A stretch of 56,169 nt of DNA from Candidatus Kapaibacterium sp. (GTDB lineage: Bacteria; Bacteroidota; Ignavibacteria; Palsa-1295). Below are positions 1,305 to 53,764 of this stretch, in pieces (the stretch's first letter is position 1; every line of letters begins with the position of its first letter). The translations under genes and the position numbers were made by a program. The DNA is taken from positions 1 to 56,169 of the forward strand of contig JBKJTP010000084.1 of assembly GCA_046590195.1 (NCBI GenBank), in the 5' to 3' direction. The notes under the pieces were generated by a model. It saw only the letters and a program-made list of their open reading frames with translations, had not been told where the DNA came from and ran no database searches.

Positions 1305-1338
1305 GGTTCTCCTAGACCATAAATAGTCTAGGAGAACC
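1305..1338 (+). promoter_or_regulatory. 13-bp perfect hairpin with CATAAATA in the loop; the 3' arm contains the SD of the downstream endonuclease gene; may also terminate the neck gene
   Basis: GGTTCTCCTAGAC (1305-1317), loop CATAAATA (1318-1325), GTCTAGGAGAACC (1326-1338), then TTT and ATG at 1342. AGGAGA lies within the 3' arm. Confidence 0.6.
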
Positions 1339-1341
1339 TTT

Positions 1342-2160
1342 ATGCCAGTACGAAAAACCACAGAAGCCTTTATCATAGAGTCTAGGATGGTTCATGGTAG
1401 TAAATACGATTATTCCCGTGTTGTATATAAGAACAATAGCTCCAAGATCGAAATAGGATGCCCGTCGCATGGATACTATTTCGCTATTGCTAAACGGCAT
1501 TCTCATCATGAGCAAGGATGTCCGATTTGTGGAATAGGAGCGTTGAATCATAAGAACCACTCGCTTAATAACAGAAAAACGCAGGAGCAATTCTTACTGG
1601 ATGCCGAAAGAGTCCATGGTGATAAATTCGATTACAGCTTATGTCGTTACGAGGGCGGTAAGAAAAAGATGCCGATTATCTGTAGAACTCATGGCATTTT
1701 TTATCAGCACAGTGAGAACCATATTAATGCCGGGACCGGATGTCTAAAGTGTTACCGTGAGAGTAGAATAGGAAAGAAAGCGGTAAGCGGATATTGTGCT
1801 GCGTATTTTGCATCTTATCCAGAAAGACGAGGAATCCCGGCTTTGGTATACGTGGCAAGGATGCAACATCTAAACGATGACTTCATTAAGATTGGAATAA
1901 CCACTAAAAACTCAGTTAAGCAACGATTTTATTATCATGCCAAACATGGTACTGTGATTACGCCCTTGATAGAAAAACAAGAAACTCTATATGACGCCTT
2001 TGTGGTGGAAACTGAAATATTATTGGCGCTCGCATCTCATCGTTATTATCCGAATAGGAAATTCGCAGGCTACACTGAATGTGTCAAGATAAACGCTGAG
2101 TCACTATCCCTGTTGTCCGGCTACTTCGGTATAAATATACAAGAACTGATAGTGAACTGA
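1342..2160 (+). CDS. free-standing homing-endonuclease-like protein: two Zn-ribbon DNA-binding repeats plus a T5orf172 / GIY-YIG-superfamily-like C-terminal domain
   Basis: Two repeats VHGxK[YF]DYS...C..HG...GC..C. The C-terminus ALVYVARM..FIKIGIT...VKQRF....E..LL.....R....F.GYTEC resembles the T5orf172 pattern. Visibly AT-richer than its flanks. Sits between gp13-like and gp14-like genes that are adjacent in T4. Confidence 0.55.
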   Translation: MPVRKTTEAFIIESRMVHGSKYDYSRVVYKNNSSKIEIGCPSHGYYFAIAKRHSHHEQGCPICGIGALNHKNHSLNNRKTQEQFLLDAERVHGDKFDYSLCRYEGGKKKMPIICRTHGIFYQHSENHINAGTGCLKCYRESRIGKKAVSGYCAAYFASYPERRGIPALVYVARMQHLNDDFIKIGITTKNSVKQRFYYHAKHGTVITPLIEKQETLYDAFVVETEILLALASHRYYPNRKFAGYTECVKINAESLSLLSGYFGINIQELIVN

Positions 2161-2165: not shown

Positions 2166-3794
2166 ATGGATACCACAACCCCTAATTGCATCTCTTGCGG
2201 ACCTGAAGACGAAAATCCGCTCAACATCTCCAACTGCCCACCAGAAGTGACGGTTGAGACGCCCGAGACCGCCTGCGATTTCTGGGAACTGGTCAACAGT
2301 CCGGAAGCCTGCATCATTGGCGGGTTCATAGACGAATCGCTGACCATAGGTGGCGCTCCCCTGAATGTCTATAAGCTACTCGGTGTCCACGAACAGGATT
2401 TGTTACAGGACGTGTCCGGGCTTGGAGCGCCTATTTCGGGTGGCGACCACCCGAGCTTCCCGGCTAGCAACGCCTTCGATACCTACATTACGGAATGGCA
2501 CTCTCGTCAGACCGGTGTCGAGGTTACGACTTCGGCTTACATCGGCTACGACTTCGGTCCGATTAAGCTGAACAACGGTCGTCTTCGTTACGGAATCGAC
2601 ACCTTCATCAAGCATGACATCGCTGCCTTCCGTATCAAGCAGGGCTGCGAACCAGAAAATCGTGTCACCAAGGTTCGCGTGGAACGTTCCGCTGATGGTG
2701 TGAAGTGGTATGGTGTCACCATCCTAGACTTACAGGATTGTGATGGCCTCATCACTGTCTACTTCAACAAAAGTGTTCCGTCCCGCTACTGGCGTCTCCG
2801 TCCGACCGCATTCAATGGCGGCACGAATGACTTCTGGGCCGTACAGGCATTCCAGCTAATGGAATATGAAGCCACCAACATCAGTAACATTCAGGACAAG
2901 ATTTTCATGGAGAATCGCGACCGCGATTACAATGAATTTCCAATCCGGATGAAGTGTGCGTACACCCCACAGGATGTGGTCGCCAACCAGATGAAGTTCG
3001 GCTTCATGGGTGAGGAACAATACATTCTCGAAGTCTCCTTTGCACAGGCCGTTGCTAAGCTAGGACGCCCGTTTGTCATCGGTGACATTATACAGCTACC
3101 AAGCGAAACCCAGTACACACCGCTACTCAAGGCCAAGAACAAGTACCTTGAGGTCATGGACGTGGGTTGGAGTACGAACGGGTTCACCCCGACGTGGGTA
3201 CCGACCATGCAGCGTCTGATTGCTAAGCCGGCGTTTGCCTCGCAAGAAACACAGAAGGTCATGGGTAAGCTGACAGGTTCAGTGGACACCAGCGGCCTGT
3301 TTGATGTAGACGACGGAAACGCCGCTAAATATCAGGATTATTCGGACGTATCGCAGGCTATCAAGGCTGAGGCAAACACCAAGGTACCGCAAGACGGTGC
3401 CGACTACGCGAACATTCCCGTTCTTTCTGATGCGCTAATCAATTATGGCGCAGAAAGAAATCTAGACCTAACCAAACTGTCACGTCGTCGCCATCCACAT
3501 GGTGTTGACGCTATGCCACCAAACGGGTTACCCTTCACCGAGGGTGATGTTCTTCCGGATAGCCCAAAGGACCAAGCATACCATCGCCTCACCTACACAT
3601 CTGTTGGTAAGGGAATTCCAGCGCGTCTATATCGTTACTCTGCGGCCAAGCGACTGTGGATTTTCCTAGAGACCGACCAACGCTACCGTATGAAGAATAC
3701 GCGTTCGCAACTGGAAGAATTCAAGAATGGTAACCATACCGGTCGTGCGGTGCCGGCAGATAACGTTGACGACGAACTGGCGAAGGACGTATAA
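2166..3794 (+). CDS. neck protein, T4 gp14-like core with an N-terminal discoidin (F5/8 type C)-like domain
   Basis: WHSRQTG..AYIGYDFG...FRIKQG...KVRVERSADGVKWYGV...SRYWRLRP..WAVQAFQL fits a galactose-binding-like/discoidin pattern. Downstream, RPFVIGDIIQLPSE...YLEVMDVGW resembles the T4 gp14 block GDLIYFPMDNSLFEINWVE. Position follows the gp13-like gene. Confidence 0.45.
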   Translation: MDTTTPNCISCGPEDENPLNISNCPPEVTVETPETACDFWELVNSPEACIIGGFIDESLTIGGAPLNVYKLLGVHEQDLLQDVSGLGAPISGGDHPSFPASNAFDTYITEWHSRQTGVEVTTSAYIGYDFGPIKLNNGRLRYGIDTFIKHDIAAFRIKQGCEPENRVTKVRVERSADGVKWYGVTILDLQDCDGLITVYFNKSVPSRYWRLRPTAFNGGTNDFWAVQAFQLMEYEATNISNIQDKIFMENRDRDYNEFPIRMKCAYTPQDVVANQMKFGFMGEEQYILEVSFAQAVAKLGRPFVIGDIIQLPSETQYTPLLKAKNKYLEVMDVGWSTNGFTPTWVPTMQRLIAKPAFASQETQKVMGKLTGSVDTSGLFDVDDGNAAKYQDYSDVSQAIKAEANTKVPQDGADYANIPVLSDALINYGAERNLDLTKLSRRRHPHGVDAMPPNGLPFTEGDVLPDSPKDQAYHRLTYTSVGKGIPARLYRYSAAKRLWIFLETDQRYRMKNTRSQLEEFKNGNHTGRAVPADNVDDELAKDV

Positions 3795-3815
3795 TCTTCG
3801 CCACGCGGAGATTGT

Positions 3816-7014: not shown

Positions 7015-8793
7015 ATGTACGAACATTTGGAACTTCTGAATAGTAAGAAAACATCAACCGAAGAATTCATTGCACAGTACAAGGCTGCACACAAAGCCAA
7101 GCTGTCCAAGGAGCAGTTCTCCAAGCTTCTAGGCATCATGCCCGAGTCCATGCGTCGTCGTCGCTGGGCTGTCAGTAAGTCCAGCAGTGTTATGCTGCCG
7201 GAGTTGAAGTCCAGTGCCGATCAGGCTGAGCCGGACCACATTCCGCAGGATAAGCTTGAGAGCTACTACACCAATTTACAGGAACTAACCAAGAACGCCG
7301 CTGGCCGTTCCGAGATGAAGAACATCTCCGGCTTTAACCGTTATGTCATTACATCGGCGCAGAACAACACCCCGGTGCATGAGAAGTTCCTGTACACTCT
7401 GAACAACTACTGTGAGGTCAATGACGCTTGTCTGGTGGTCATTCCCTACCGCTACAAGAACCCGACCTCCGTCTTCACTCCGACGCAGGAATCCGAAGAA
7501 ATCTGGAATCCTCGCCTGACGCCATACATCATCGACGAGATGACTCGCCTGTCGAATAACTTGGTGCTTCTAGCCAATGTTAAAATCCAACCTACGGCCA
7601 TTCAGCCGCTATCCGGGTTCGACGGCTACACCGGTCTCGATTCCGCCATTCTAGGACACCCGAAGATTCAGCTTGTTACCGTCCCGACCCCAAGCCAGCA
7701 TCTTCCGAAGATTCTAGCCACCACGGGCTCCGTAACGCTGCCTAACTATACGGACAGCAAGGCCGGCTGGAAGGGTGAGTTCCATCATAGTCTCGCTGCA
7801 ATAGTCGTTGAAATCGACGCAGACGGTGACACGCACATCCGTCACATTCACGCTGACGATGTTACCGGGCACTTCTACGACCTCGACAAGTGCTACACCC
7901 CGACCGAAGTTACAGACGGCCACCGTGCCGCTGCACTGGTCACGGGCGACACCCATGCCGAGTTCATGGACGATAAGGTTAAGGCCGCGACGTATACGAA
8001 TGTAGACTCCATGTGCAGCCTACTACGTCCGGAGGTTATCGTCCGTCATGACGTGGAAGACTTCTACGCTCGTAACCATCATCACCGTGGCAATGACCTC
8101 ATTGCATTCGGCAAGCATCACTTCGGTCGTGACAATGTAGAAGAATCGCTACAGATTACAGCGAACTTCATTGACGAAACTACCTACCCGGAGAGCGTCA
8201 ACATCATCGTCAAGTCTAATCATGATGAGGCGTTGGACCGTTGGCTTCGTGAGGCCGAGCCAAAGTACGACCAAGAAAATGCCGTACTGTATTACTACAT
8301 GAAGTTCCATCAGATGCGTAATGTTCGCATGACGGAAACGGGATTTAGCAGCATCGACCCGTTCGAGTTCTGGTGTCATAATCCATTAGACCAGAAGGGT
8401 CTACGTAACAAGGCGCAGACCAAGTTCCTGAAGCGCGATGAGTCGTTCCGCGTCTCTGACGTGGAGTTAGGTTTCCATGGCGACATCGGTCCGAACGGAG
8501 CGCGGGGCAGCATCAAGTCCTTCGCCAAGATAGGTCCGAAGACCATCATCGGTCATAGCCATTCTCCGGGTATCCACGAGGGTTGCTATCAGGTCGGCGT
8601 CAGTGCCAAGCTCAACCTCGAATACGCTTCAGGTCCAAGCTCGTGGTCGCACACGCACTGCATTGTCTATCCGGATGGCTCGCGTACACTGGTCCACGTA
8701 ATCAATGGCAAGTGGCGCACCGCTGGCACGGTACCGCAGGATGACAAGGGTAAGGTCCGAGTAAAGTTCATCGACGCTATTGACGCAGAATAA
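7015..8793 (+). CDS. calcineurin-like metallophosphoesterase-domain protein with a ~300-aa unknown N-terminal region
   Basis: The ordered metallophosphoesterase motif set is visible: TGDTH (DxH), HDVEDF (GDxxD-like), KSNHDE (GNHD/E), GFHGD, GHSHSPG (GHxH). Confidence 0.55.
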   Translation: MYEHLELLNSKKTSTEEFIAQYKAAHKAKLSKEQFSKLLGIMPESMRRRRWAVSKSSSVMLPELKSSADQAEPDHIPQDKLESYYTNLQELTKNAAGRSEMKNISGFNRYVITSAQNNTPVHEKFLYTLNNYCEVNDACLVVIPYRYKNPTSVFTPTQESEEIWNPRLTPYIIDEMTRLSNNLVLLANVKIQPTAIQPLSGFDGYTGLDSAILGHPKIQLVTVPTPSQHLPKILATTGSVTLPNYTDSKAGWKGEFHHSLAAIVVEIDADGDTHIRHIHADDVTGHFYDLDKCYTPTEVTDGHRAAALVTGDTHAEFMDDKVKAATYTNVDSMCSLLRPEVIVRHDVEDFYARNHHHRGNDLIAFGKHHFGRDNVEESLQITANFIDETTYPESVNIIVKSNHDEALDRWLREAEPKYDQENAVLYYYMKFHQMRNVRMTETGFSSIDPFEFWCHNPLDQKGLRNKAQTKFLKRDESFRVSDVELGFHGDIGPNGARGSIKSFAKIGPKTIIGHSHSPGIHEGCYQVGVSAKLNLEYASGPSSWSHTHCIVYPDGSRTLVHVINGKWRTAGTVPQDDKGKVRVKFIDAIDAE

Positions 8794-9333: not shown

Positions 9334-10101
9334 ATGGCTGATTATACTCAAGAGATTATTGAAGAGTGTCACGCTTGCGAGCGCAACCCGCTGTATTTCA
9401 TAGACAAATACGTTAAAATTCAAAGCAGTCGCGGTCAGATACCACTTACGCTATATCCAGCGCAGGCCAATTGCGTTGAGTCATTCGGCAGAGAGCCGCG
9501 AGTCGTCATCGCTACCCAACGCCAGCTTGGGATGACTTCTGTATTCACGGCCTATCTGCTGTGGTACTTGATATTCAATAAGGACAAGACTGCCGGTCTT
9601 GTCCTTCCTCGACTGCAAATGGTGCATGAATACATTCGCATATTCTATGAGATGTATGAATTATTGCCGGACTGGATGCGTCCGGGGATTGAAGAGCGTA
9701 CCAAGTCCTCTATTCGACTGAGCAACAACGCTCGTCTTATCACCTCTACGGCCGGGTCGAATACATTCAAAGGTAGGACTATTAACCTCTTGGTATGGGA
9801 CTTGGTTGGCTTTGGTCGGTATACCGATGAAGAATGCTTCCTCAACGAAATCTATCCTTGCATGTCCATCCCGGCTGGACAAATCATTATGTGTGGGAGT
9901 GGTCGCCCAGACGATACGCCAAACTTCTTAACGCAGGTTTACCTATCCGGACTGGTCGGTGGAACTTTCTATCCTATTCAATTGCGTTGGTGGGATAACC
10001 CATCGCTGACCCGCAAGTGGAAAGCAAAGCAGATAGAAGTTATCGGTGAAGAGCAATTCAAGTGGGAATACGAGTCTATTATCCTACCGTCTCGCCACTA
10101 A
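9334..10101 (+). CDS. terminase large-subunit ATPase-domain paralogue with degenerate Walker A and B motifs
   Basis: Collinear with TerL residues ~30-266. NPLYFIDKYV/DPAYFARNYV; LYPAQ/LYPYQ; ATQRQLGMTS vs SARQTGKTE (Lys lost); ELLPDWMRPGI/EELPNWLKPGI; LLVWDLVGF vs LLYCDEFAF (Glu lost); ends at WEYESI, aligned to QEYE|C, which is the intein insertion point. Confidence 0.6.
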   Translation: MADYTQEIIEECHACERNPLYFIDKYVKIQSSRGQIPLTLYPAQANCVESFGREPRVVIATQRQLGMTSVFTAYLLWYLIFNKDKTAGLVLPRLQMVHEYIRIFYEMYELLPDWMRPGIEERTKSSIRLSNNARLITSTAGSNTFKGRTINLLVWDLVGFGRYTDEECFLNEIYPCMSIPAGQIIMCGSGRPDDTPNFLTQVYLSGLVGGTFYPIQLRWWDNPSLTRKWKAKQIEVIGEEQFKWEYESIILPSRH

Positions 10102-10110: not shown

Positions 10111-11112
10111 ATGGCTAAGAAAAACCCACGCCTAAAGAAATCCGGGACTGTAGAAGAATACACCCCGGAAATGATTGCTGAAATCCGCAAGTGCAAACTT
10201 GACCCGGCGTATTTCGCACGCAATTACGTCATGATTAAGCATGCCAAGCGAGGCAAGATTAAGTTCGCTCTCTATCCGTATCAGGAAGAGATGCTTCAGA
10301 TGTACAAGGACAATCGCTACAACATCATCTTGTCCGCTCGCCAGACCGGTAAGACCGAAACCACCTGTGCCTTCCTACTGTGGTTCGCTATCTTCCATTC
10401 CGACAAGACCATCCTTGTCGTATCCAACAAGTCCTCCAACGCCAAGGAAATGATTGGTAAGATTCAGTATGCCTACGAAGAGCTACCGAACTGGCTGAAG
10501 CCGGGTATCGACGCCGATAGCTGGAACAAGCACGAGTGCAAGTTCGAAAACAAGTCCCGCATCATCGCTCAGGGTACATCTACAGACTCTGGTCGTGGTC
10601 TATCCATCTCTCTACTATACTGCGACGAATTCGCATTCGTCCGGCCGCACATTCAGGCCGAGTTCTGGGACTCCATCTCTCCTACACTGGCGACCGGTGG
10701 TGCGTGTATCATTTCCTCTACGCCGAACGGTGACAGTAACCTGTTCGCTGAACTATGGCGTAAGGCAACGCTGGGCGGGCTGTCTGAAGATGATGCGCCG
10801 TTCAAGTCCAAGCACGTTCCATGGGATGCTCCGCCGGGCCGTGACGAGAAGTTCAAGCGTCAGCAGATTGCCATCCTTGGTGAGCGTAAGTGGCGTCAGG
10901 AGTACGAGTGTGTAACCGGTGACACTATCGTCACGGTTAGGAACAAGGAAACTGGTGAAATAGAGAATCTTGCTATCGCTGAACTTAAGATGCGAATTCT
11001 TATAAATAATCTCCATGAATCGGAGAATATAGTATGTCATGTGTCTACAAACTCACCAGAGCAGATGGTCTTGAATATATCGGGATTACGGTCAATCTGT
11101 CGAAAAGATTGA
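10111..11112 (+). CDS. terL: terminase large subunit, N-terminal ATPase fragment (N-extein, 266 aa) fused to a short N-intein and a read-through tail
   Basis: Walker A SARQTGKTE, Walker B LLYCDEFAF, coupling motif SSTPNG. At Cys267 (nt 10909) the sequence switches to the intein block A pattern CVTGDTIVTV. Confidence 0.85.
   Translation: MAKKNPRLKKSGTVEEYTPEMIAEIRKCKLDPAYFARNYVMIKHAKRGKIKFALYPYQEEMLQMYKDNRYNIILSARQTGKTETTCAFLLWFAIFHSDKTILVVSNKSSNAKEMIGKIQYAYEELPNWLKPGIDADSWNKHECKFENKSRIIAQGTSTDSGRGLSISLLYCDEFAFVRPHIQAEFWDSISPTLATGGACIISSTPNGDSNLFAELWRKATLGGLSEDDAPFKSKHVPWDAPPGRDEKFKRQQIAILGERKWRQEYECVTGDTIVTVRNKETGEIENLAIAELKMRILINNLHESENIVCHVSTNSPEQMVLNISGLRSICRKD
10909..10989 (+). other. 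N-intein fragment (~27 aa, block A only)
   Basis: CVTGDTIVTVRNKETGEIENLAIAELK. Block B (TxxH) is absent here and appears in the downstream ORF. Confidence 0.6.
11001..11008 (+). promoter_or_regulatory. exact T4 late-promoter consensus TATAAATA upstream of the GIY-YIG gene
   Basis: TATAAATA at 11001-11008, followed by the short hairpin TCTCC/GGAGA that contains the SD, then ATG at 11034. Confidence 0.5.
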
Positions 11113-11675
11113 GTGGGCATCGGCGATCAAGACGATTCGCCGATTACCAAATTACTAATGTTGAAATACTATTCACCGGGACGTATGACGAGTGTGATGC
11201 ACTAGAAGAAGGCTACATTACGCAATACGACACCTTTTACAAGGGGTTGAATATGACCAACCGTGGGAAGGGTCGTAATCTTTCGAGCAAGTTCAATACC
11301 TTCGGATACAAATTTAGTGAGAGTAGTCGCAAGAAAATGTCCGAGAAGTCAAAAGCTAGAACAGATCGAAAGACGGGACACAAACATAGTGATGAGGTCA
11401 AGAGACATTGGAGTGATATCAGGCGCGGGAAGGTCTGGGGTCCAATTAAGGTAGACGTTCAGACCCTACTATCTCAATGGGGTGAGTTCGCCCCATCGTT
11501 AGCTGATATGGAGTCCATGGTGGTCTACCGAGATGATAAGGTGTGGTTTAAGAATGGTAGGGAGTTTTCTTATCCAAAGGGTAAACTATCACTGTTCAAA
11601 AGGTTGAAAAGTGTGGAATACGGTGTAACTCCGGAAGCCATCAAAAGGATAATTGTAGATGAACAGCTTGTATGA
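11034..11675 (+). CDS. GIY-YIG homing endonuclease with NUMOD3-like repeats, lying between the two TerL/intein halves
   Basis: CVYKLTRADGLEYIGIT..LSKRLSGHR, E..YI, NMTNRGKG, then G[YH]K[FH]S[ED]..[KR]K.. repeats. A different frame from both TerL fragments; overlaps their ends by 79 and 17 nt. Confidence 0.85.
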   Translation: MSCVYKLTRADGLEYIGITVNLSKRLSGHRRSRRFADYQITNVEILFTGTYDECDALEEGYITQYDTFYKGLNMTNRGKGRNLSSKFNTFGYKFSESSRKKMSEKSKARTDRKTGHKHSDEVKRHWSDIRRGKVWGPIKVDVQTLLSQWGEFAPSLADMESMVVYRDDKVWFKNGREFSYPKGKLSLFKRLKSVEYGVTPEAIKRIIVDEQLV

Positions 11676-11970
11676 AATTCTGACCGAAAATGGTTTTAGA
11701 GACTTTATGACCGTCACTTCAAAGATGACGCCGGGCTACTGTGTCATCACTCTTACCGATGGTGTTGTGGTTAAGTGTACCCAGAGTCACCGATTCAAAG
11801 TAGGGGAGGAATTCGTCGAAGCCCGCGACCTCAAGCTTTCAGACAAGCTGGCACCGACCGGGGTTGGCGTATCGGCCATTGAATACGTTACGGATGAAGT
11901 TGAAGTTTTTGATGTAGTTAATGTAGATGATGGTAATCATTATATCACCAACGGTATAACATCACATAAT
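11659..11970 (+). other. C-intein fragment (104 aa, blocks B, F, G)
   Basis: See the TerL C fragment above. The terminal His-Asn occupies residues 103-104 and Cys is at +1. Confidence 0.7.
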
Positions 11971-12747
11971 TGTGACTTCCTGTCCTCTGACGGTGGCCTC
12001 ATGGATTCTTACGTCATGGGTAGCATCCAAAAGGAAGTCGAGATTATGACTCCTACATTCGTCATTGAGGATGAGGGCGAATTGTACAAATTCTACGCCA
12101 AGATTAATCCGCTATCTACCTACATCATCGGCATAGACCCGGCGACCGGTTCCGGTGTGGATTACAGTGTAATACAATGCTTTGAATTCCCGTCGATGAA
12201 TCAGGTCTTCGAGTATCGTAGTAACGTAATGCGACCGGAAAGTATCTACAAGGTCGTAAAAAAACTAATAGCCTTCATTTCCCAGACCGGTGCGGTGGTA
12301 TACTTCTCGGCTGAGAACAACGGTGTCGGCCAGTCCATTATTTCATTGTACCTGTCCGACGAAACGCCAGCCCCGGCAACCTTCGTATCCGAGGACGGTA
12401 AGGACAAGTACGGCTTCTTCACCAGTCCTCGAAGCAAGATTCGATGCTGTGTCAAGATGAAGAACATGATTGAGAACCGGACCATTAAGCTATCCTCCGA
12501 AACCATGGTCAAGGAGCTAAAGAGCTATGTCCGTAAGGCCGGCTCGTATTGCGCTCAGATTGGTGCTACCGACGACTGCATTGCGGCCTTCCTAATTGTT
12601 ATACGCATCATCGAAGAGATTGCGACGTATGACGAAAAGGCGTACCATATGATGTATCAGTTCGAAGAGCCGGGAGCATGGAAGGATGAGGGTCATCCGG
12701 AGCCGGATTACGGCTACACTATTCCAGTTGAAGCGATGCGCGGATAA
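11659..12747 (+). CDS. terL: terminase large subunit, C-terminal nuclease fragment (C-extein, 258 aa) preceded by a 104-aa C-intein
   Basis: Intein block B LTDGVVVKCTQSHRF, block F VEVFDVVNVDDGNHYITNG, block G ITSHN followed by the +1 Cys (TGT at 11971). The extein then continues CDFLSSDGG... with the RNaseH-like nuclease pattern IIGIDPATGSG. Confidence 0.85.
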   Translation: MNSLYEILTENGFRDFMTVTSKMTPGYCVITLTDGVVVKCTQSHRFKVGEEFVEARDLKLSDKLAPTGVGVSAIEYVTDEVEVFDVVNVDDGNHYITNGITSHNCDFLSSDGGLMDSYVMGSIQKEVEIMTPTFVIEDEGELYKFYAKINPLSTYIIGIDPATGSGVDYSVIQCFEFPSMNQVFEYRSNVMRPESIYKVVKKLIAFISQTGAVVYFSAENNGVGQSIISLYLSDETPAPATFVSEDGKDKYGFFTSPRSKIRCCVKMKNMIENRTIKLSSETMVKELKSYVRKAGSYCAQIGATDDCIAAFLIVIRIIEEIATYDEKAYHMMYQFEEPGAWKDEGHPEPDYGYTIPVEAMRG

Positions 12748-18979: not shown

Positions 18980-19402
18980 ATGGCTAAGATAGCTAAGAAG
19001 AACTCAAAAAGTATTAGCGCCAAGGAAATCAAGGCGTGGCTACGAGGCATACAAGAGTTTCAGCCGGAAGGTTGGACTCCAAGTAAAGCTCAGTGGGATG
19101 CGATCCGTGACCGTATTTTCTCACTTGACGAGGATGTAGTGGAACATTCACAGTTTGAAGTCTCGCGTTCGACACGCGTAGTCGATTTCGTCCCGGCCCC
19201 GCAGTTTGCGCCACCGGCCCATGGGTTTCCACAGATATCGAATAACGAAACCTATGTAGCTGCTACTCCAATGGGTCCGTCTATACTGGCCGATACAGCT
19301 AACGCGACAGCTAAAAACGTTAAGTTGAAGCCGGCAGGCGATGGCGGTGTGTCTGTAATTGCAGACCCGACTGCCGAAGGCGAGTACAAGTCTCCATTCT
19401 AA
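18980..19402 (+). CDS. hypothetical protein
   Basis: ORF with an ATGA-type junction to the next gene. Confidence 0.5.
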   Translation: MAKIAKKNSKSISAKEIKAWLRGIQEFQPEGWTPSKAQWDAIRDRIFSLDEDVVEHSQFEVSRSTRVVDFVPAPQFAPPAHGFPQISNNETYVAATPMGPSILADTANATAKNVKLKPAGDGGVSVIADPTAEGEYKSPF

Positions 19403-19941
19403 TGCAGACTGTGTTGAAAGACAGAATACTCTGGTTCGATGGTGATTCCACTATCGAACCAGATGTTCTTGCGGATATCGTCCTAAAAGGATTAAAACTC
19501 AAGAAGGGTATCTTCGTGAGTGAGGTCACAGACGAGATTGAGCAGTTCAATCGGATTTCCACTTATCAGCTTGAAGAAAAGACCGAGAACCGCCCGTTAT
19601 CATTTGACTGGAATATCCCGGAGAAGTATATAGAGATGAATCTCCGGACGTTCTTTCTAGGCAAGCTGGCCGAAGAAGCCGAATGGAATATAAAGCTTTC
19701 GCAATCAGACTTGGAAGAACGAATCAAGAGAATCGACGTTGAACTGGACGCGTATTACCAGTCAAATGTCAACATGTTGCTCCGTTCGACCCTGTTCATC
19801 ATAGATACCTTTAAGGAGAAAAACGTGGTATGGGGGGTAGGCCGAGGCAGCGCCTGTAGCTCATATATACTGTATCTTGCTGGCGTTCATGATATAGACA
19901 GCGTAGCCTACGAATTGGATATCAGTGATTTCCTTCGCTAA
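19402..19941 (+). CDS. DnaE (Pol III alpha)-like fragment 1: palm segment up to the ERFL helix; no PHP domain
   Basis: VWGVGRGSACSSYILYLAGVHDIDSVAYELDISDFLR* aligns to E. coli DnaE [39 protein letters not shown]. Upstream, EERIKRIDVELDAY... aligns to YDERLETELQVI.... The ORF stops exactly where DnaE continues into PDFDVDF. Confidence 0.65.
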   Translation: MQTVLKDRILWFDGDSTIEPDVLADIVLKGLKLKKGIFVSEVTDEIEQFNRISTYQLEEKTENRPLSFDWNIPEKYIEMNLRTFFLGKLAEEAEWNIKLSQSDLEERIKRIDVELDAYYQSNVNMLLRSTLFIIDTFKEKNVVWGVGRGSACSSYILYLAGVHDIDSVAYELDISDFLR

Positions 19942-23237: not shown

Positions 23238-24527
23238 ATGGCTAACTGCGCTGAAAATGTATATGTAATCAAATACACCGATATCGCCAAGGGTACGATT
23301 ACGATCACCAAGTCTTCCTTGGTTACGAATCTGATCGACATCGCGCTGGTCGGTAAGTCGCGTCTTGATTACGGCGAACTATTCGACGAGAACCTACTCC
23401 ATCTTCTAGAGAACTTTGCTTGCCCGGAAGACTCCGGTACGCCGGGTACTCCTGATCTGTCCGAAGCCTATGGCACCCTTCTAAGCAATCCTATTCAGGG
23501 TCAGAAGTGGTACAACTCAACCAATGGTTATCTGTATATCTTCAGCAACGATGAGTGGATTTGTCAGGGGCGTCAAGGCGACGTTGCTGGTAACTCCGGC
23601 GTCATTGCCCATGGCGCGTATCTTCCGCAGCCTGTTAACTCCCTCGGTTACGTGTTCCCGTATGCAGAGTGTAGCTTCGTTGTAAGTCCTCATTCCTATT
23701 TGGCTACTGATATTACCGGCCTCCCGGCTGATATAGAAGTTGATTTCATGACGTGTAATGTCGATGCAAATGGGCTAGTAACAATGCAGTTCCGTTATCG
23801 CGGTGAGTCTTCTCTACGAGACGGTTACGTCAATTATCAGATTATTGGTATCCGTGGTGAAACCAACGGTGCGGTCATGGTGGTAACACCATACCCTGTC
23901 CCATCTCCGACTCCGGGTGTGAGCCCGACAATTACACCAACGATGACGCCTACGAAGACGGTCACACCGACCCCAACGAAGACCCCGACACCGACCCCGA
24001 ACTTGTCTGTCTCGGTAACACCGACGAAGACGGTAACCCCAACACCGACGATTACTGTCACCCGTACAGTAACTCCAACACCGACACCGACGAAGACGGT
24101 AACCCCAACTCCATCGCCGTCTACTGCGGCAGCACTGGACCTGAGTCGTTTCTCCGGGCTTATTGGTACCACCAGTCTCCACAATCCGGCAGCAGTGGTT
24201 GTCACATTCGATGTTGATGGTACATGGGCTATTGATAGAATTCCGGGTACGGATGAGACCGGAACTTTCCTTGCTTCCGGTGATACATCAGAATATGAGT
24301 TTGAATTCTCCTATACTGGTGATGACGACCCATCCGGTGGCGCTTATGTCCCAAGTACATGGTATCCTGTAGCAGACGGTATTTACTTGTCTATTTCTGA
24401 TGCTGTTGTTGGCTCAGGTTTTAATTCCTCATTGTGTGTGTTGACCATGCGTAAGATTAGTAATAATGCCATTTCCGAGACCGCATCATTCACAATGCGT
24501 GCAGACGGTAATACATACGACGGATAA
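23238..24527 (+). CDS. fibre-like structural protein, paralogue A (conserved N-domain, PT linker, unique C-domain)
   Basis: Its N-terminal ~215 aa are shared with the ORFs at 24583 and 27054 (blocks listed in the findings). Followed by an 80-aa Pro/Thr linker. Confidence 0.7.
   Translation: MANCAENVYVIKYTDIAKGTITITKSSLVTNLIDIALVGKSRLDYGELFDENLLHLLENFACPEDSGTPGTPDLSEAYGTLLSNPIQGQKWYNSTNGYLYIFSNDEWICQGRQGDVAGNSGVIAHGAYLPQPVNSLGYVFPYAECSFVVSPHSYLATDITGLPADIEVDFMTCNVDANGLVTMQFRYRGESSLRDGYVNYQIIGIRGETNGAVMVVTPYPVPSPTPGVSPTITPTMTPTKTVTPTPTKTPTPTPNLSVSVTPTKTVTPTPTITVTRTVTPTPTPTKTVTPTPSPSTAAALDLSRFSGLIGTTSLHNPAAVVVTFDVDGTWAIDRIPGTDETGTFLASGDTSEYEFEFSYTGDDDPSGGAYVPSTWYPVADGIYLSISDAVVGSGFNSSLCVLTMRKISNNAISETASFTMRADGNTYDG
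23886..24125 (+). repeat. Pro/Thr-rich linker-coding low-complexity repeat (paralogue A)
   Basis: TPYPVPSPTPGVSPTITPTMTPTKTVTPTPTKTPTPTP...TVTPTPSPS. Reiterated ACN-CCN codons create spurious antisense ORFs. Confidence 0.85.
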
Positions 24528-24582
24528 TCGTCTGGTGATAGATATAGAGATGTAAAGCGGTACCAAATCATAAGGTAATAGA

Positions 24583-26883
24583 ATGTCGGATTACAACGTA
24601 AAGTTTACAGACACCAACAAAACTCCCATTCTCGTCGAACAGGATGCTCAGAAGTCAACCGAAACGGACCTCGTTCTGTTCGGTCGAAGCTTCTTGGAGT
24701 ATGGTGAACAACTGAATGAGAATCTGGTAAAGATACTAGAGAACTTTGCATGTTCCGAAATGGCAGCACCACCGGAAGCTGGCGATTGGCCCGACACCGA
24801 TCTTACCGTCAATGAGACACTTACCGAGCCACTCGAAGGTCAGTTGTGGTATAACACCACGAAGCAGGCCCTGTACAATTACAACGGTACCATGTGGATT
24901 CCGCTGGTGACGGGTTCGGACTATGCTGCCAATTGGGGACAAGTCACAGACGGTACACTATTACCGCGTCCGGTTGCACAAAATGGATATGTTTTCCCTT
25001 ACTCGGAGTGTATCTGGATAGTCTCTCCGGCCGGACATGGCGGTCGATTCGATTATATGGCTTGCACTACAGACGAAGACGCGCAGGTACTGATGCGTTA
25101 TCGTTTACTCGGTGACGACACGCTGACTAGCGGTACCGCAAATTATCTCATTATTGGTATTCGTGGTAACACTAACAACGGTACCATCGTTGTGGACCCG
25201 CCGATTTATGTCGAGCCGAGCCCAACACCGGGTGCATCCCCGACACCGGCACCGTCAAGTACGCGTCCGCCGACTCCAACTCCAACGAACACACGCACTG
25301 CAACGCCGACGATTTCGTTGACGCGTACACCGGTACCGTCCGCCTCACGTACTCCACCACCAACACCATCACCACGTCCGGCTCTCGCCATGAACATCGT
25401 TGACAGTGCCCGTGGTGGTGACTACGTGGACTCCATCAGCCTATGCAACATGGGTGACTACATCTCGACCTTGGACGTTGGTAATCAGGGTTGCACGGTA
25501 ACTATCGGTAACTGCACCTCCGGTGCATGCGCTCCGGAACCGGGTGATTTCTCCACGGGTGACGTAGCAATCGGTGCGGCTATGGGTATCACTGTAACCG
25601 GTGGCACTGCACCGTACACCGTCAGATTCAAGACCTTCACCGCTACGAGCGGCGCGGCAGCATTTGCAGCTAGTGGCGACTGTCTGTTCATCGGCGGTAG
25701 TTCTGGTTTCAGCACACTACCAAGCGGAACAGTCTATTCTTTCATCATCCCGACCGATGGTGGTAGTCAGGATGGCATCACAATCAACGCTTCATGCGGT
25801 GACGATGTTTACACGCTGACTGGTAACTTCACAGTTGAGGTAACGGATTCCGTTGGTACCATCATATCGGAAACATTCCCTTACACCGTAGAACGTAAGA
25901 ACGAAGCAGCTTGCTATGACATCACCGATTTCCGCTCCGGATTTATGCTATCTGATAGTAATGGTGGGTCTTCAAGTTGTGATGGTAGCGCCATGGCGTC
26001 CTCCGGTACACCTACTAACTGGCTAGCGAAGACGGCCAGCGTAAACTACACATCGTTCAATTCGAACGTCGGAGCGCCAAGCAAGGTAATCATGTCCGGT
26101 ATTCCGAAGTGGTGGCCGCGTCCGGCGGCGCGTGTGACATTAACCATTACACACCCACTAGCCGGCTCTGCTCCGGTAACAGTAACGGCGTTCCGTGATA
26201 CTGGTAGAGCTAGCGCGGCTAATGGTGTATCGACCGGAACCGGTTCAGTTACTATTGGCGCGCATACCTATACCGTGACACTGTCGATAACAGTAGGATA
26301 CACCGGTAAGGACCAAATTGATGGTGTGTGTAATGATATTTACTACTACAATATCAGTCCGTCCTTCACAATTTCTCCGGCTATTACTTCTTGTTCAGCA
26401 CTGACACCGCCGGGTGGCGCACTCTATGACGGTGGTGGTGGTGGTGGTTGTGTTACGACCGAATCCATGATTTACGGTAGTGGCCTAGCTTCCGGCGTCA
26501 TGGTCGGTGCGACCATGACGGTCATCGACCCATCCAGTCTAGAGTTGGGTACGGGTATTGTTTCTCTGGCCGACATCAAGCTACAGCCTTGCGTGCGAAT
26601 CACTTCCGAGTCAGGCGTTGTGCTGGAATGCTCGACAACCGCTCCAATCGCTAACAGCGACGGTGTGCAGGTTCTAGCTCCTGACCTGTTGGGTGTCGAA
26701 GTGCTTGTCTACGACAATGGTGTGGTGCGTTCTGAGAAGGTTGTGAGTGTTGAAGACATCGGTGACAAGGAAGTCGTCCACATCACGGTAGAGAACAACT
26801 ACTTCTTGGCCGGTGCCGAAGACGGTCGTTACTTCTTCCACCATAATATCAAAAACTTCATTGGCGGGTTACAGCCTTACTAA
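24583..26883 (+). CDS. fibre-like structural protein, paralogue B, with a C-terminal Hint (intein-like) domain
   Basis: Shared N-domain, PT linker (25195-25380), a ~350-aa G/S/T-rich region, a Gly6 run, then the Hint domain. Confidence 0.75.
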   Translation: MSDYNVKFTDTNKTPILVEQDAQKSTETDLVLFGRSFLEYGEQLNENLVKILENFACSEMAAPPEAGDWPDTDLTVNETLTEPLEGQLWYNTTKQALYNYNGTMWIPLVTGSDYAANWGQVTDGTLLPRPVAQNGYVFPYSECIWIVSPAGHGGRFDYMACTTDEDAQVLMRYRLLGDDTLTSGTANYLIIGIRGNTNNGTIVVDPPIYVEPSPTPGASPTPAPSSTRPPTPTPTNTRTATPTISLTRTPVPSASRTPPPTPSPRPALAMNIVDSARGGDYVDSISLCNMGDYISTLDVGNQGCTVTIGNCTSGACAPEPGDFSTGDVAIGAAMGITVTGGTAPYTVRFKTFTATSGAAAFAASGDCLFIGGSSGFSTLPSGTVYSFIIPTDGGSQDGITINASCGDDVYTLTGNFTVEVTDSVGTIISETFPYTVERKNEAACYDITDFRSGFMLSDSNGGSSSCDGSAMASSGTPTNWLAKTASVNYTSFNSNVGAPSKVIMSGIPKWWPRPAARVTLTITHPLAGSAPVTVTAFRDTGRASAANGVSTGTGSVTIGAHTYTVTLSITVGYTGKDQIDGVCNDIYYYNISPSFTISPAITSCSALTPPGGALYDGGGGGGCVTTESMIYGSGLASGVMVGATMTVIDPSSLELGTGIVSLADIKLQPCVRITSESGVVLECSTTAPIANSDGVQVLAPDLLGVEVLVYDNGVVRSEKVVSVEDIGDKEVVHITVENNYFLAGAEDGRYFFHHNIKNFIGGLQPY
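25195..25380 (+). repeat. Pro/Thr/Ser-rich linker-coding repeat (paralogue B)
   Basis: DPPIYVEPSPTPGASPTPAPSSTRPPTPTPTNTRTATPTISLTRTPVPSASRTPPPTPSPRP. Confidence 0.85.
26449..26847 (+). other. Hint / bacterial-intein-like autoprocessing domain at the fibre C-terminus
   Basis: Begins with Cys after GGGGGG (CVTTESMIYG, block A-like). Block F-like VVHITVENNYFLAG. Ends FFHHN (block G His-Asn). The +1 residue is Ile, followed by only 11 aa (IKNFIGGLQPY). Confidence 0.6.
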
Positions 26884-27053
26884 TGTATATCATCGTCCGA
26901 CACAAAGATAATGTAATCGTAGGCAACGCTCTTCGTCCGGTTGACGAAGTTCAGTTGTCCAAAAATGGCTATAAGGTATTCGAGATAGATGACTCCGAGT
27001 TCTCTATCTCAATGCTGGGCTCCAAACTGGACGGGTTTCAAGAGGTTAAGTAA
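26883..27053 (+). CDS. small hypothetical ORF (56 aa), below the ORF-track cutoff, between fibre paralogues B and C
   Basis: ATG overlaps the upstream stop (TAATG) and its own stop abuts the next start (TAAATG). Translation: MYIIVRHKDNVIVGNALRPVDEVQLSKNGYKVFEIDDSEFSISMLGSKLDGFQEVK. Confidence 0.4.
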   Translation: MYIIVRHKDNVIVGNALRPVDEVQLSKNGYKVFEIDDSEFSISMLGSKLDGFQEVK

Positions 27054-28267: not shown

Positions 28268-28921
28268 ATGCCCCTTAAAATAAAGAACATAACAACTTCG
28301 AAGACCGTAGAGCAGGGAAGATTGGAGTGGGCGGAAACCCTCTCCCATCGTAATAAACTGCTCACCTCTTCGGATTGGACCCAGCTTCCGGACTCCGGTC
28401 TTACGTCTGAGTGTGTTGAGAACTGGCGTATCTGGCGAGGCATCGTCCGGCAGCTTCGCAAGGACAATCATCCTGACCGTAATCTTGTTACGGAGCAAAT
28501 CAATCGTCTTACTCGTGCCAAGCCCGTCAACCGATGGGCCGACGAGCCTGAGATTGCGTTGCCTCTTCTCGATAACTCATTCGCTAGCCATCAAAAGCGC
28601 GTCATGGATTACATGGACGTGATGTTCAACGATGCCGCCACTGTCAAGTCATTCCTCGAACATCCTCTCCTGATAGATGCCGGCCTCCGGAAGGCAGAAA
28701 AGGAGCTTGGTATATTGGGTAAAATTGGAATCCTATCCAGAAAAATATGGTCCGATAAACTATTCGAATTGAATCACCGAAGGAATGTTAGTGTAGCCCG
28801 TATTTTCAAGCTACAGAGCAAGTACTTGGAGTTTTCCGAGCTTGTCAAGAACGCCACGGCTACTGTAGAATTGCAGACACTACAGGTAGAAATAAAGCAA
28901 TGGATATCGACATTGACTTAA
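28268..28921 (+). CDS. possible tail-fibre assembly/chaperone-like protein
   Basis: The N-terminal RNKLLTSSDWTQLPDSGLTSECVENWRIWRGIVRQLR matches the remembered tail-fibre-assembly signature (LL..SDW..lpD......W..YRq.LR). Lies directly after the fibre paralogues. Confidence 0.35.
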   Translation: MPLKIKNITTSKTVEQGRLEWAETLSHRNKLLTSSDWTQLPDSGLTSECVENWRIWRGIVRQLRKDNHPDRNLVTEQINRLTRAKPVNRWADEPEIALPLLDNSFASHQKRVMDYMDVMFNDAATVKSFLEHPLLIDAGLRKAEKELGILGKIGILSRKIWSDKLFELNHRRNVSVARIFKLQSKYLEFSELVKNATATVELQTLQVEIKQWISTLT

Positions 28922-30957: not shown

Positions 30958-30986
30958 TTGACATCGACCCGGTATTTCTGTAACAT
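30958..30986 (+). promoter_or_regulatory. sigma70-type (early) promoter
   Basis: TTGACA (30958-30963), 17-nt spacer, TAACAT (30981-30986). Confidence 0.55.
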
Positions 30987-37126: not shown

Positions 37127-38044
37127 ATGCGAAATAAATGGACTACCGAACTAATGCTAATAGAGATTAGAAAGAGATTAGGCGATAGTATACGAGTTCC
37201 GAAAGACTTTAAGTATGAAGGAATTGATACTTTAGCAACATTTATATGTGAAGTACATGGGGAATTCCAAAAATCCTGTTATAGTTTACTTAAAAGCAAA
37301 ACTCCATGCCACTGGTGTGCCCCCAACCACAAAAGGACTTGGGCGGAGATTGAAGAGAAGATGGAGCTTATACACGGTAAAAAATACGATTATTCCTTAT
37401 GTCAGAAAACGTACATGCCTAAGTATAAGCTTAGCATTATATGCCCGGAACATGGAGTGTTCAAACAATCCGCTGCCGAGCATCTAACGGGCGCTGGTTG
37501 TAGAGTGTGTTACGAGGACAAGAATAGATTATCAATCAATACATTTCTAAAAAATAGTATTGAATTACATGGTGAAAATTACGATTATCAAAAAGTTTTT
37601 GAAACGTTTAGAAATGGTAGGTCGAAGGTAGAAATAATTTGTAAGAGACATGGAGTATTTACACAAAAGGCCACCGACCACTGTAGGGGTGTAGGATGTC
37701 CGTCTTGTCGTTCATCTAAAGGGGAACAACAAATTGAAAGATTTTTGAAAGCTACTCTTATTGATTTCATAAAACAGAAGACGTTCCCAGATTTAAGGTC
37801 ACTACGAGGGGGTTATCTAAAGTATGATTTCTTTATACCATCTCTTAATTGCTTAATAGAGTACGATGGTGTCCAGCATTTTAATGAAATAGGCCATTTT
37901 GACCACCAAAGAACAAAGGAATCTGATTTACTGAAAGATGAATATGCTAAGCTGAATAAAATCTTACTAATAAGAATACGTTATAACGAAGATGTGAACC
38001 AAAAATTAGAAGCTCTTATTTCATCATTGACAACTACACCGTAA
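37127..38044 (+). CDS. free-standing homing-endonuclease-like protein: three Zn-ribbon DNA-binding repeats plus a Vsr/PD-(D/E)xK (EDxHD-type) nuclease domain
   Basis: Repeats [IL]HGx[KN]YDY....C..HG.F.Q.....H..G.GC..C. C-terminus YDFFIPSLNCLIEYDGVQHF...HFD. Strongly AT-rich relative to the flanking natV and nadV. Confidence 0.65.
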   Translation: MRNKWTTELMLIEIRKRLGDSIRVPKDFKYEGIDTLATFICEVHGEFQKSCYSLLKSKTPCHWCAPNHKRTWAEIEEKMELIHGKKYDYSLCQKTYMPKYKLSIICPEHGVFKQSAAEHLTGAGCRVCYEDKNRLSINTFLKNSIELHGENYDYQKVFETFRNGRSKVEIICKRHGVFTQKATDHCRGVGCPSCRSSKGEQQIERFLKATLIDFIKQKTFPDLRSLRGGYLKYDFFIPSLNCLIEYDGVQHFNEIGHFDHQRTKESDLLKDEYAKLNKILLIRIRYNEDVNQKLEALISSLTTTP

Positions 38045-48097: not shown

Positions 48098-48766
48098 ATG
48101 GACGACACAATTTTGGATGCATATTTTGCTGGACTGTTCGATGGTGAAGGGTCAGTTGGTATCTACTGCGTCAGCAATGGTAAGGGTAGCAATGAAAAAA
48201 AGTTCTATGCTATCAAGTTAGCAATTGTGGGTACTCATCGTCCTATGATAACAAAAGCATTTAACAACTATGGGGTAGGTAATATATCTACACAGAAGAG
48301 ACAGACATTATCAGTTACTCCGAAGGGAAATTATAGAGTCGAAGATGCTACCGATAATATCAAAATATGCAAACAGGGTTGGGTGTGGTTCGTGACATCC
48401 AAAAGCGAGGTAAAGTCTGTACTGTTAAGATTACTACCATATCTAAATGAAAAGAAATTGCAGGCAGAGATATGTCTCAAATTTGTAACCGGTGAGTTGG
48501 ACGGAGAGACGGCAAGCAATTTATGTAAGGAAGCCAAGAAGTTTAATTTTCCGAACGAGGGCTTTGTTCAAGGTCCGAGACGTTCTGGTGGGCTGCTCGG
48601 TGAAGATAATCCAACTGCCAAGCTCACTATTGCTTCAGCCACTAGTATCAGGCAAGAACACGTTGCTGGGGCTAAGGTAAAAGACCTAGCAGATAAGTGG
48701 GAGGTGTCGCGAGATACGATTTATAGAGTAATACGAAATGAGAGATATTTCGCCAGCACACAATAA
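48098..48766 (+). CDS. LAGLIDADG homing endonuclease (single-motif type) with a C-terminal HTH
   Basis: LDAYFAGLFDGEGSVGIY is a canonical LAGLIDADG motif. C-terminal VKDLADKWEVSRDTIYRVIRNE is HTH-like. AT-rich. Confidence 0.8.
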   Translation: MDDTILDAYFAGLFDGEGSVGIYCVSNGKGSNEKKFYAIKLAIVGTHRPMITKAFNNYGVGNISTQKRQTLSVTPKGNYRVEDATDNIKICKQGWVWFVTSKSEVKSVLLRLLPYLNEKKLQAEICLKFVTGELDGETASNLCKEAKKFNFPNEGFVQGPRRSGGLLGEDNPTAKLTIASATSIRQEHVAGAKVKDLADKWEVSRDTIYRVIRNERYFASTQ

Positions 48767-52434: not shown

Positions 52435-53067
52435 ATGCTAATCAACAAAGAGAACCCATCCGAAATCACCCAAGGCTTCCCGCCAATCCTCGCACTCAAT
52501 GCGGCTGGTGAGGCTGTCGAATGGCTGACTTACGAAGACGCTGCCTGCTACCACGCCAAGGGTAAGATTCTTTGGTCGGTCGGCTCGCACGAGATGAACA
52601 TCCGTGGCGGTACGAATGCTAAGACGGGTCTGCCGACTGTCGTTCGTATCGAGACCATTGTTGCCATCGCCAACGACAAGAGCCCGACACGCTACCACGC
52701 TCGCGACCCGCGTCTGTCCAACAAGACGCTGTTCGAGCGCGACCGTAACCTGTGCGCCTACTGCGGTGAGACGTTCAAGCACAAGGCACTGACGCGCGAC
52801 CACGTTCTGCCGACCTCTAAGGGCGGTAAGGACTCGTGGGCAAACGTGGTCACGGCTTGCGCCGGATGCAACCAGTGGAAGTCCGACCGTACCCCGGAAC
52901 AGGCAGAGATGCCGCTCCTGTACGTTCCGTACACGCCGTCGTACAACGAGAAGCTCATTCTCGACAACCGTAGGATACTTTTTGACCAAATGGAGTTCCT
53001 TATCAAGGGTGTCTCGCCACACAGTCGTGTGTACAAAGAATACATGCGTACTAAGGAAGCGGCCTAG
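52435..53067 (+). CDS. HNH endonuclease
   Basis: CAYCGE......DHVLPTSKGGKDSWANVVTACAGCNQWKSD (CxxC...H..N...CxxC..N..K). Confidence 0.8.
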   Translation: MLINKENPSEITQGFPPILALNAAGEAVEWLTYEDAACYHAKGKILWSVGSHEMNIRGGTNAKTGLPTVVRIETIVAIANDKSPTRYHARDPRLSNKTLFERDRNLCAYCGETFKHKALTRDHVLPTSKGGKDSWANVVTACAGCNQWKSDRTPEQAEMPLLYVPYTPSYNEKLILDNRRILFDQMEFLIKGVSPHSRVYKEYMRTKEAA

Positions 53068-53764
53068 GTAGTAATTGGAAACCCTTATTACTACCAGATG
53101 ATATCGGCTTCTTCCTAATAAAGCTCCCGTACAGTGAATGGTACGGGAGCTTTTCTTTTTCGCAGAACGCCTTTAGATGGTCGATGTCTGCTGTACTCCC
53201 GTCAGGATATACGACCGTCCATTTGTGACCTCTGAAATCAGAGCCGCCCGGCCCCCGAACTGCTCGCATTCTCTCCTTGGTCGAGTCGGAATGCTTGAGC
53301 TTCTTACTGTTCTCACTTAATCGTCGCTTGACCTCATCAGAATGGGTCTTCCCATACATCGGATTCTTTTCTCCCGGAAGGCCGGAGCGTTTTCTTAGTT
53401 CATCGCATATGGTGTATCCGTCACCCCCGGATGTCATGTTACAAAGAGGCCCGCGCTTAAGTTCGGGAATGCACCATTTCGTGCCTATCCGTTCGATCCA
53501 TTCCTTTTCCAATACCATTGCGGCTTCTTCGTCCATATTACTCTCTAGGAAGACGATTTTAGGCACGAACCCCGCATCTACGATTCTTTGTATTTTACCC
53601 TTCTTCAATGAATTATTAGTTCGATGATTTGGGTCTAAATGGCACCACGCCCGCCTTCCCTTACCCTTTCCAATATAGAATGGTTGATGGTCTAGCCTAT
53701 GCCCGTCTTCGGTGGTATACTCTTCTCTTCTCGGGTCGAGATATGCGTACACGTAATATTCCAT
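53051..53764 (-). CDS. GIY-YIG homing endonuclease with NUMOD3-like repeats
   Basis: YVYAYLDP....PFYIGKGKGRR..H, E.EWI, NMTSGGDG, NPMYGKTHSDEVKRRLSE. I prefer the start at ATG 53764 (SD GGAG) over the listed TTG at 53779. Converges on and overlaps the HNH gene by 17 nt. Confidence 0.8.
   Translation of the reverse strand: MEYYVYAYLDPRREEYTTEDGHRLDHQPFYIGKGKGRRAWCHLDPNHRTNNSLKKGKIQRIVDAGFVPKIVFLESNMDEEAAMVLEKEWIERIGTKWCIPELKRGPLCNMTSGGDGYTICDELRKRSGLPGEKNPMYGKTHSDEVKRRLSENSKKLKHSDSTKERMRAVRGPGGSDFRGHKWTVVYPDGSTADIDHLKAFCEKEKLPYHSLYGSFIRKKPISSGSNKGFQLLPRPLP

Follow-up and report, generated by a model that had tools for sequence, protein, structure and literature searches.

The DNA considered here, a contig of 56,169 nucleotides assigned to Candidatus Kapaibacterium sp. 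(JBKJTP010000084.1; hereafter the window), is part of the genome of a distant T4-like phage and carries eight endonuclease-like genes, six of which have a box of their own, of the form NTAAATA, set in the loop or the 5' arm of a hairpin. We consider it likely that the leaders of these genes are best explained by the type of gating known from T4, in which the hairpin covering the ribosome-binding site (RBS) also houses a promoter; within this explanation, the function of the box as a promoter, the position at which transcription starts and the effect on translation are the parts that we infer. The window is, in our view, a well-supported new example of the design published for T4 and Aeh1 and not a new mechanism. 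The idea behind an earlier sequence-only reading of the window had already been described by Edgell et al. 2010 (PMC2988022) and Dassa et al. 2009 (PMC2677866). Leader statistics, site geometry and orthologous cassettes all speak for the T4-style hairpin with a late promoter that this reading proposed, except at the gene starting at 11034, whose hairpin folds no better than chance.

All six arrangements of hairpin and box to which the sequence-only reading had pointed are present, and the six open reading frames (ORFs) behind them are without exception endonuclease-like according to Pfam, PHROGs and family alignments (Table 1; genes are named by the position of their start codon). The GIY-YIG and HNH signatures were recovered with Pfam, the LAGLIDADG signature of 48098 through the family alignment, its score lying below the Pfam cut-off (17.6 versus 23.1 bits). 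Gene 37127 is an endonuclease as well, judging from its PHROG matches and its IEYDGVQH motif, while the label EDxHD-type that it had been given is a candidate assignment; a PDB sequence search with its protein returned no matches. The minus-strand GIY-YIG ORF spans 53051-53779 as scored by Pfam.

When the sites were folded with RNAfold and compared with 200 dinucleotide shuffles each, five of the six hairpins folded much better than the shuffles (z from -3.3 to -8.2, with 0/200 shuffles as good), 11034 being the exception. Before the first of these genes, which we call endonuclease 1, GGTTCTCCTAGAC (1305-1317) is perfectly complementary to GTCTAGGAGAACC (1326-1338), as had been noticed, and RNAfold adds one A-U pair to give a stem of 14 bp (1304-1339; -27.8 kcal/mol, z = -8.2, 0/200 shuffles as good) that is followed by TTT-ATG at 1342. 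The 3' arm at 48098 contains TAGGAG and leads into a run of six T. At 37127 the AUG is paired in an outer helix, NadR ends on the TAA contained in the box, and a weak sigma-70-like site, TTATCA-16-TACAAT (37072-37099), overlaps the hairpin element. At 52435 TAAATA lies in the loop and a weak Shine-Dalgarno (SD) sequence, GAGAG, in the 3' arm. On the minus strand before 53764, ATAAATA sits in the inner loop as described, and an outer helix that had been overlooked, GAAAAUUCAUC / GAUGGAGUUUUC, pairs the GGAG that serves as SD for the likely start ATG. The element at 11034 lies in the coding sequence of an N-terminal intein half. Throughout the five strong hairpins (z <= -3.3) the SD pairs with a probability of 0.73-1.0. 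The late starts predicted by the T4 spacing rule, 6 nt past the last A of the box, fall at ~1331, 48077, 37097, 52418, 11014 and, on the minus strand, 53784. Every one of them lies within or past the 5' arm, and leaders cut at the predicted start fold with 0 to -3 kcal/mol, their SD pairing going down to 0.11-0.47.

Table 1. Endonuclease-like genes of the window, the hairpin and box elements in front of them, and associated features.
Feature	Position	Strand	Description
Endonuclease 1	1342..2160	+	DUF723 zinc-finger repeats and T5orf172 nuclease domain
Hairpin of endonuclease 1	5' arm 1304-1317; loop 1318-1325; 3' arm 1326-1339	+	loop CATAAATA; GGAGA in 3' arm; RNAfold
Box in 3' end of endonuclease 1	2130..2137	+	TATAAATA; first base 36 nt upstream of structural gene 2166
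terL-N	10111-11112		residues 3-267 align to residues 4-265 of intact L003 terL, then CVTGDTIVTV...
Element of 11034	box 11001-11008; stem 11010-11014 / 11022-11026; element 11001-11030	+	TATAAATA, then 5-bp TCTCC/GGAGA stem; z = -1.2
GIY-YIG + NUMOD3 endonuclease	11034..11675	+	between terL halves; above Pfam cut-offs
terL-C	11659-12747		first ~104 residues end ...GITSHN|C, then homology to L003 terL 265-522
Element of 37127	box 37084-37091; stem 37090-37097 / 37119-37126; whole element 37083-37130	+	TATAAATA adjoining 8-bp stem; z = -3.3
Endonuclease with DUF723-like zinc-finger repeats	37127..38044	+	C-terminal IEYDGVQH (Vsr/DUF559-like) motif; PHROG endonuclease families, E = 4e-55
Endonuclease gene, probably truncated	39535-40104	-	contains NUMOD3; adjoins capsid gene
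gp23 capsid gene	40446-41647		Pfam/PHROGs
GIY-YIG endonuclease-like ORF	41966-42706	+	begins 3 nt after upstream gene
Element of 48098	box 48064-48071; stem 48067-48077 / 48084-48094	+	ACTAAATA overlapping 5' arm of 11-bp stem; z = -5.0
LAGLIDADG-type endonuclease	48098..48766	+	C-terminal helix-turn-helix domain; invariant A-G-x-F-D-G-E-G in family alignment
Element of 52435	stem 52391-52407 / 52413-52433; box 52406-52412	+	bulged stem; CTAAATA at stem tip and loop; z = -6.8
HNH endonuclease	52435..53067	+	Pfam, 62.6 bits
GIY-YIG + NUMOD3 endonuclease	53051..53764	-	antisense to all neighbours; above Pfam cut-offs; likely ATG 53764 after GGAG
Element of 53764	hairpin 53766-53814; inner stem 53797-53802 / 53779-53784	-	two-tier hairpin; inner stem 6 bp, loop AATAAATA; z = -4.0

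The endonuclease leaders stand apart from those of the remaining genes. Among leaders folded from -50 to +6 for 69 genes (8 endonuclease-like and 61 other), the median minimum free energy was -16.2 kcal/mol for the endonuclease genes and -8.3 kcal/mol for the others (Mann-Whitney p = 0.003), with a median SD pairing probability of 0.74 versus 0.45 (p = 4e-4; 5e-5 when the six named genes are taken). Likewise, a box is found between -45 and -18 in 6/8 endonuclease genes and in 10/61 other genes (Fisher p = 0.0014). The module is nevertheless not special to endonucleases: the box appears to be a general late-type promoter, and gene 9334, which does not encode an endonuclease, has the same combination in the form of a 14-bp hairpin that begins in a CATAAATA box and ends in a run of six T (z = -6.1).

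The window contains 32 copies of TAAATA, of which 16 have a start codon 18-45 nt downstream, a placement open to 1.7% of strand positions (binomial p = 3e-20); permutations matched in base composition and not overlapping the box are so placed in 0-3 copies. The exact TATAAATA occurs six times, always on the plus strand, where 1.6 copies are expected. Boxes precede the genes for the gp23 capsid protein (box 40416) and terS (5972), fibre-like or structural genes starting at 2166, 23238 and 45992 (boxes 2130, 23204 and 45960), the terL-like gene at 9334 and others, at a spacing of 27-36 nt from the start codon. The terS box is kept in the relative L001, and in the relatives L003 and L070 a box lies ~28 nt upstream of many genes. 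In the consensus published for T4-like late promoters TATAAATA occupies -13 to -6 and its first base varies (T/A/C), Aeh1 using CTAAATA (PMC1524935); the NTAAATA box fits this consensus, including the Aeh1 variant. Given its placement, its association with late genes and its match to this consensus, the box is best read as the putative general late promoter of the phage, of the gp55 type and not specific to endonucleases. It could offer a late-promoter map for annotating the clade, in which the hairpins would flag endonuclease insertions.

On this basis, transcripts entering from upstream would contain both arms of the hairpin, fold and hide the RBS, and the endonuclease would not be translated from polycistronic read-through RNA, be it early or late. 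Transcripts from the internal box would start about 6 nt past its last A, in or beyond the 5' arm, and would be translatable, as they could not form the hairpin. The net effect would be a low and late expression of the endonuclease from its own promoter alone. Hairpin and box move with the endonuclease gene in an inserted cassette, and this cassette would also bring a promoter for the displaced host gene.

Cassette comparison supports such portability, already suspected in the sequence-only reading, for endonuclease 1. Single-protein searches of IMG/VR loci with endonuclease 1 and with the LAGLIDADG gene gave no matches, and the relatives came from alignment-based searches. In L001 and L002, which lack the endonuclease, the head-tail adaptor gene and the gene downstream abut (..GGCTAATCATGA..), so that 1286-2165 can be recognized as one insertion, comprising endonuclease 1 with its hairpin and box and, at 2130, a further TATAAATA. 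The 2130 box, conserved in L003 and L070 and absent from L001 and L002, is the putative promoter of the displaced host gene at 2166, carried by the cassette. In gene 37127, in turn, the 3' end contains TTGACA-17-TACAAT (38027-38055), a sigma-70-like promoter that would serve the NAMPT gene downstream.

Other relatives have orthologous endonuclease 1 genes inserted at this very site, their proteins being ~60% identical. In L003, L007, L009 and L069 the box lies at the loop and the SD in the 3' arm of stems that are unrelated in sequence and shifted in register (z from -4.1 to -10.4), and in L069 the A and the U of the start codon are paired as well. RNAalifold found no consensus structure on five of the orthologous leaders; since the stems stand in different registers relative to the box, pairwise covariation could not be scored and per-sequence z-scores were used instead. 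The evidence from endonuclease 1 is that of a structure which persists while its sequence turns over, not of pair-by-pair covariation. Among LAGLIDADG homologues, those of L210 and L153 also sequester the SD in hairpins of unrelated sequence, and the hairpin of L207 is weak. The HNH gene, which lies 3' of the AAA_33 kinase gene in L212 (9502-10633), L073, L074 and L079 and belongs to a family of hundreds of homologues with 50-74% identity, behaves like a conserved resident gene and not like a recently mobile endonuclease. A tie between the module and the DUF723 protein family was considered and rejected, distant DUF723 homologues in unrelated phages showing no consistent box or hairpin; the module is tied to this clade.

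Several observations weigh against the T4-type explanation or restrict it. The sequence-only reading had proposed that the hairpins make the endonucleases 'express late only'. Sigma-70-like TTGACA-17/18-TAnAAT promoters mark early units at 3766, 13295, 18355, 30958, 35461, 35962, 38027 and 49099 (those at 3766 and 49099 read TTGACG), and only two of the genes lie clearly behind early genes, namely 37127 after NadR and 52435 after deaminase and kinase genes, preceded by sigma-70-like promoters at 35962 and near 51380, respectively. The rationale of early versus late is plausible for these two and fails for the other four: 1342, 48098 and 11034 come after late genes for structure or packaging, while 53764, being antisense, has no upstream gene in its own orientation. 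In those four cases the hairpin would not impose lateness but would keep endonuclease expression separate from the abundant polycistronic RNA made late, and a better general statement is that the endonucleases would be translated only from transcripts of their own promoters.

Neither do all genes and sites conform. The endonuclease-like ORFs 41966-42706 and 39535-40104 (minus strand) have no box and no RBS hairpin, in which they resemble the promoter-less seg and mob cassettes of T4, and the hairpin at 11034 is not significant, 26/200 shuffles folding as well and the SD pairing probability being 0.54; with these three cases the module falls short of the generality claimed for it. At 37127 the best SD candidate, GGAG 37115-37118, lies in the interior of the hairpin outside the main stem, and at 1342 the predicted late transcript would have a leader of 11 nt only, beginning at the SD. 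The hairpin is degenerate or missing in 5/10 endonuclease 1 orthologues. Spacer, box and hairpin are all absent from the HNH gene's nearest relatives, and a 38-nt spacer carrying the module is found in the window only, which suggests that the module at this site is specific to the lineage of the window. Homologues of gp55, gp33 and gp45 were not detected with Pfam and PHROGs in the window, itself a partial genome, nor were they among the precomputed Pfam matches of the 20.6-kb L212, the one relative locus checked. Finally, the perfect palindromes of 1342, L007 and L069 fit an element acting at the DNA level equally well.

Such an element would be a palindromic operator at the -10 region of the promoter, bound by the endonuclease in an autorepression loop or by a phage regulator. 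In the window, in L007 and in L069 the box is indeed enclosed by perfect palindromes of 13-19 bp, for which sense and antisense folds are equally stable, and I-TevI autorepression at an operator overlapping its own late promoter is documented (PMC2988022). We nevertheless hold an operator to be improbable. The sense strand is the better folder in 10/16 hairpins through G-U pairs; this strand specificity favours a role at the RNA level, perfect palindromes being uninformative in this respect. The arms are unrelated in sequence among orthologues that share ~60% identity, the feature that is kept, an SD in the 3' arm, is relevant in RNA only, and endonuclease families whose DNA-binding domains are unrelated share this architecture.

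The hairpins could alternatively act mainly as intrinsic terminators or 3'-end stabilisers of the upstream gene, insulating the cassette, with the RBS overlapped by coincidence. Each hairpin does lie directly past the stop codon of the upstream gene, and runs of six T follow those of 48098 and of the non-endonuclease gene 9334. A terminating function had been suggested for the stems followed by T-runs, and 48098 is the only endonuclease site to which this applies: an intrinsic terminator should have at least five U directly after a G+C-rich stem, and at 1342, 37127, 52435, 53764 and 11034 only 0-3 T follow and terminator scans reported none of these stems. Moreover, 53764 has no upstream gene of its own orientation to terminate. 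The SD lies in the 3' arm in every strong case, also in orthologues with different stems, a feature that a pure terminator does not need. Termination as the main function therefore has little to recommend it.

Less probable still is that NTAAATA works as an RNA-level signal, either a site of processing or cleavage by the stem that would free the RBS, or a context for stopping and restarting translation. At 5972, 12745, 32670 and 37086 the gene upstream terminates on the TAA of the box, and the frequent position of the box in a loop would make it an accessible, single-stranded A/U-rich site, of the kind that RNase E prefers. However, the box is also found between genes where it is not a stop codon, and late promoters of the gp55 type (PMC1524935) show a matching motif, spacing and link to capsid, fibre and terminase genes. 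As for a chance co-occurrence of box and hairpin in spacers rich in A and T, the weak 11034 hairpin and small AATAC/GTATT stems beside the box at several non-endonuclease genes may be of this kind, but as an explanation of the whole it is effectively refuted by the shuffles (0/200 as good at 5/6 sites), the box placement (p = 3e-20), the contrasts between endonuclease and other genes (p = 4e-4 to 3e-3) and the recurrence of the structure in orthologues with different sequences.

The T4-type gating that we favour has been documented for I-TevI, I-TevII, I-TevIII, segB and Aeh1 mobE (Gibb & Edgell 2007, 2009, 2010; reviewed in Edgell et al. 2010, PMC2988022), and endonuclease genes have also been reported to contain promoters for downstream host genes (PMC2988022). 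As in T4 and Aeh1, the endonuclease ORFs of the window have a TATAAATA-type box just upstream, a stable hairpin containing the SD and predicted transcripts without the 5' arm, while host-gene promoters (2130 and 38027) are embedded in endonuclease 3' ends and some endonuclease cassettes lack a promoter. Unlike T4, the phage of the window is a distant one, has a G+C content of ~49% and carries pieces of DnaE instead of gp43. The endonuclease families extend to DUF723/T5orf172, LAGLIDADG and Vsr-like ones, and several of the genes follow late genes or are antisense and do not lie inside early or middle units; the window is, moreover, known from its sequence alone. T4 also has translation-blocking hairpins on the early read-through RNA of e (lysozyme), soc and 49, with late promoters in the 5' arm (PMC3014915). 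Gene 9334 resembles these, whereas the strongest cases of hairpin and box in the window cluster on endonuclease genes. If our reading is right, a textbook design of T4 also operates in an uncultured lineage of T4-like phages that has diverged very far, and in the DUF723/T5orf172, LAGLIDADG and Vsr-like families. The cassette comparison shows that hairpin and putative promoter move with the endonuclease and that the structure is maintained despite sequence turnover, which bears on how selfish genes limit the cost to their host.

A related arrangement is that of the 'fractured genes' with split inteins described in environmental, metagenomic T4-like sequences, in which GIY-YIG and Vsr-like endonucleases have hairpins in 15/16 leaders, 10 of them with TATAAATA, the host genes being gp41, IMPDH and DnaE as well as NrdJ and NrdA (Dassa et al. 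2009, PMC2677866). The terL region of the window (10111-12747) looks like another such gene, with the N-terminal part and an N-intein half, the GIY-YIG gene, and a C-intein half followed by the C-terminal part; the intein blocks were recognized by eye and gave no Pfam intein match. It differs from the published cases in that terL is not among their host genes, most endonuclease genes of the window are intergenic insertions, and none of the six hairpins is weaker than that of the fractured terL. Directly upstream of this terL, ORF 9334-10101 is a second, divergent copy resembling the terL ATPase, 28% identical to residues 17-263 of the L003 terL, and may be a remnant of endonuclease-mediated exchange. 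Rfam and tRNA scans of the window gave no matches, so that none of the endonuclease genes is embedded in a group I intron.

A variant of the arrangement with sigma-70-like promoters was observed before early genes. In two cases, TTGACG-18-TATAAT before the DnaB-like helicase gene at 3816 (3766-3795; z = -4.6) and TTGACA-17-TAACAT before gene 31016 (30958-30986; z = -6.4), the 5' arm or the loop of a hairpin contains the -10 element, and its 3' arm holds the SD or AUG of the next gene. A weaker one precedes the dCMP deaminase gene at 51418 (51378-51420; z = -1.5), and at 35461-35496 TACAAT lies in the loop of GGGGGCC...GTCCCC. The helicase combination is conserved in the closest relative, L001, only, and not in L003, L006, L007 or L070. 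This variant before early genes (3816, 31016) is not listed in the T4 reviews consulted. It is conceivable, if doubtful, that a promoter within an RBS hairpin is a general rule of insulation in the clade, working in both temporal directions. The sigma-70 hairpins would then prevent late read-through RNA from being translated into early proteins, and the endonuclease cassettes would carry a portable unit for expression from their own promoter only, each lineage rebuilding the stem around the box.

The T4-like affiliation of the window derives from Pfam and PHROGs matches to gp23, gp32, UvsX, UvsW, the gp44 clamp loader and a gp62-like gene; a DnaB-like helicase, terS, a head-tail adaptor and NadR/NAMPT were also recognized. 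No near-identical phage and no near relative was found among 50,697 GenBank phage records, and the sole tblastn match, MW202577, was rejected as a small, unrelated siphovirus with a fibre-like protein in common. There is no family-B (gp43-type) polymerase in the window; two separate ORFs (19402-19941 and 28900-29469) match different parts of DNA polymerase III alpha (DnaE) and lie ~9 kb apart, with tail-fibre-like genes in between. An unusual neighbour for T4-like replication and capsid genes is the 592-residue protein encoded at 7015-8793, which matches a PHROG 'DNA transfer protein' family (E = 2e-165), a family that we take to resemble T5 A1. Three fibre-like paralogues follow each other in a row at 23238, 24583 and 27054 (23238-28259); they have a common N-terminal domain, and each continues with a long Pro/Thr-rich linker (..TPTPT..) and a divergent C-terminal part.

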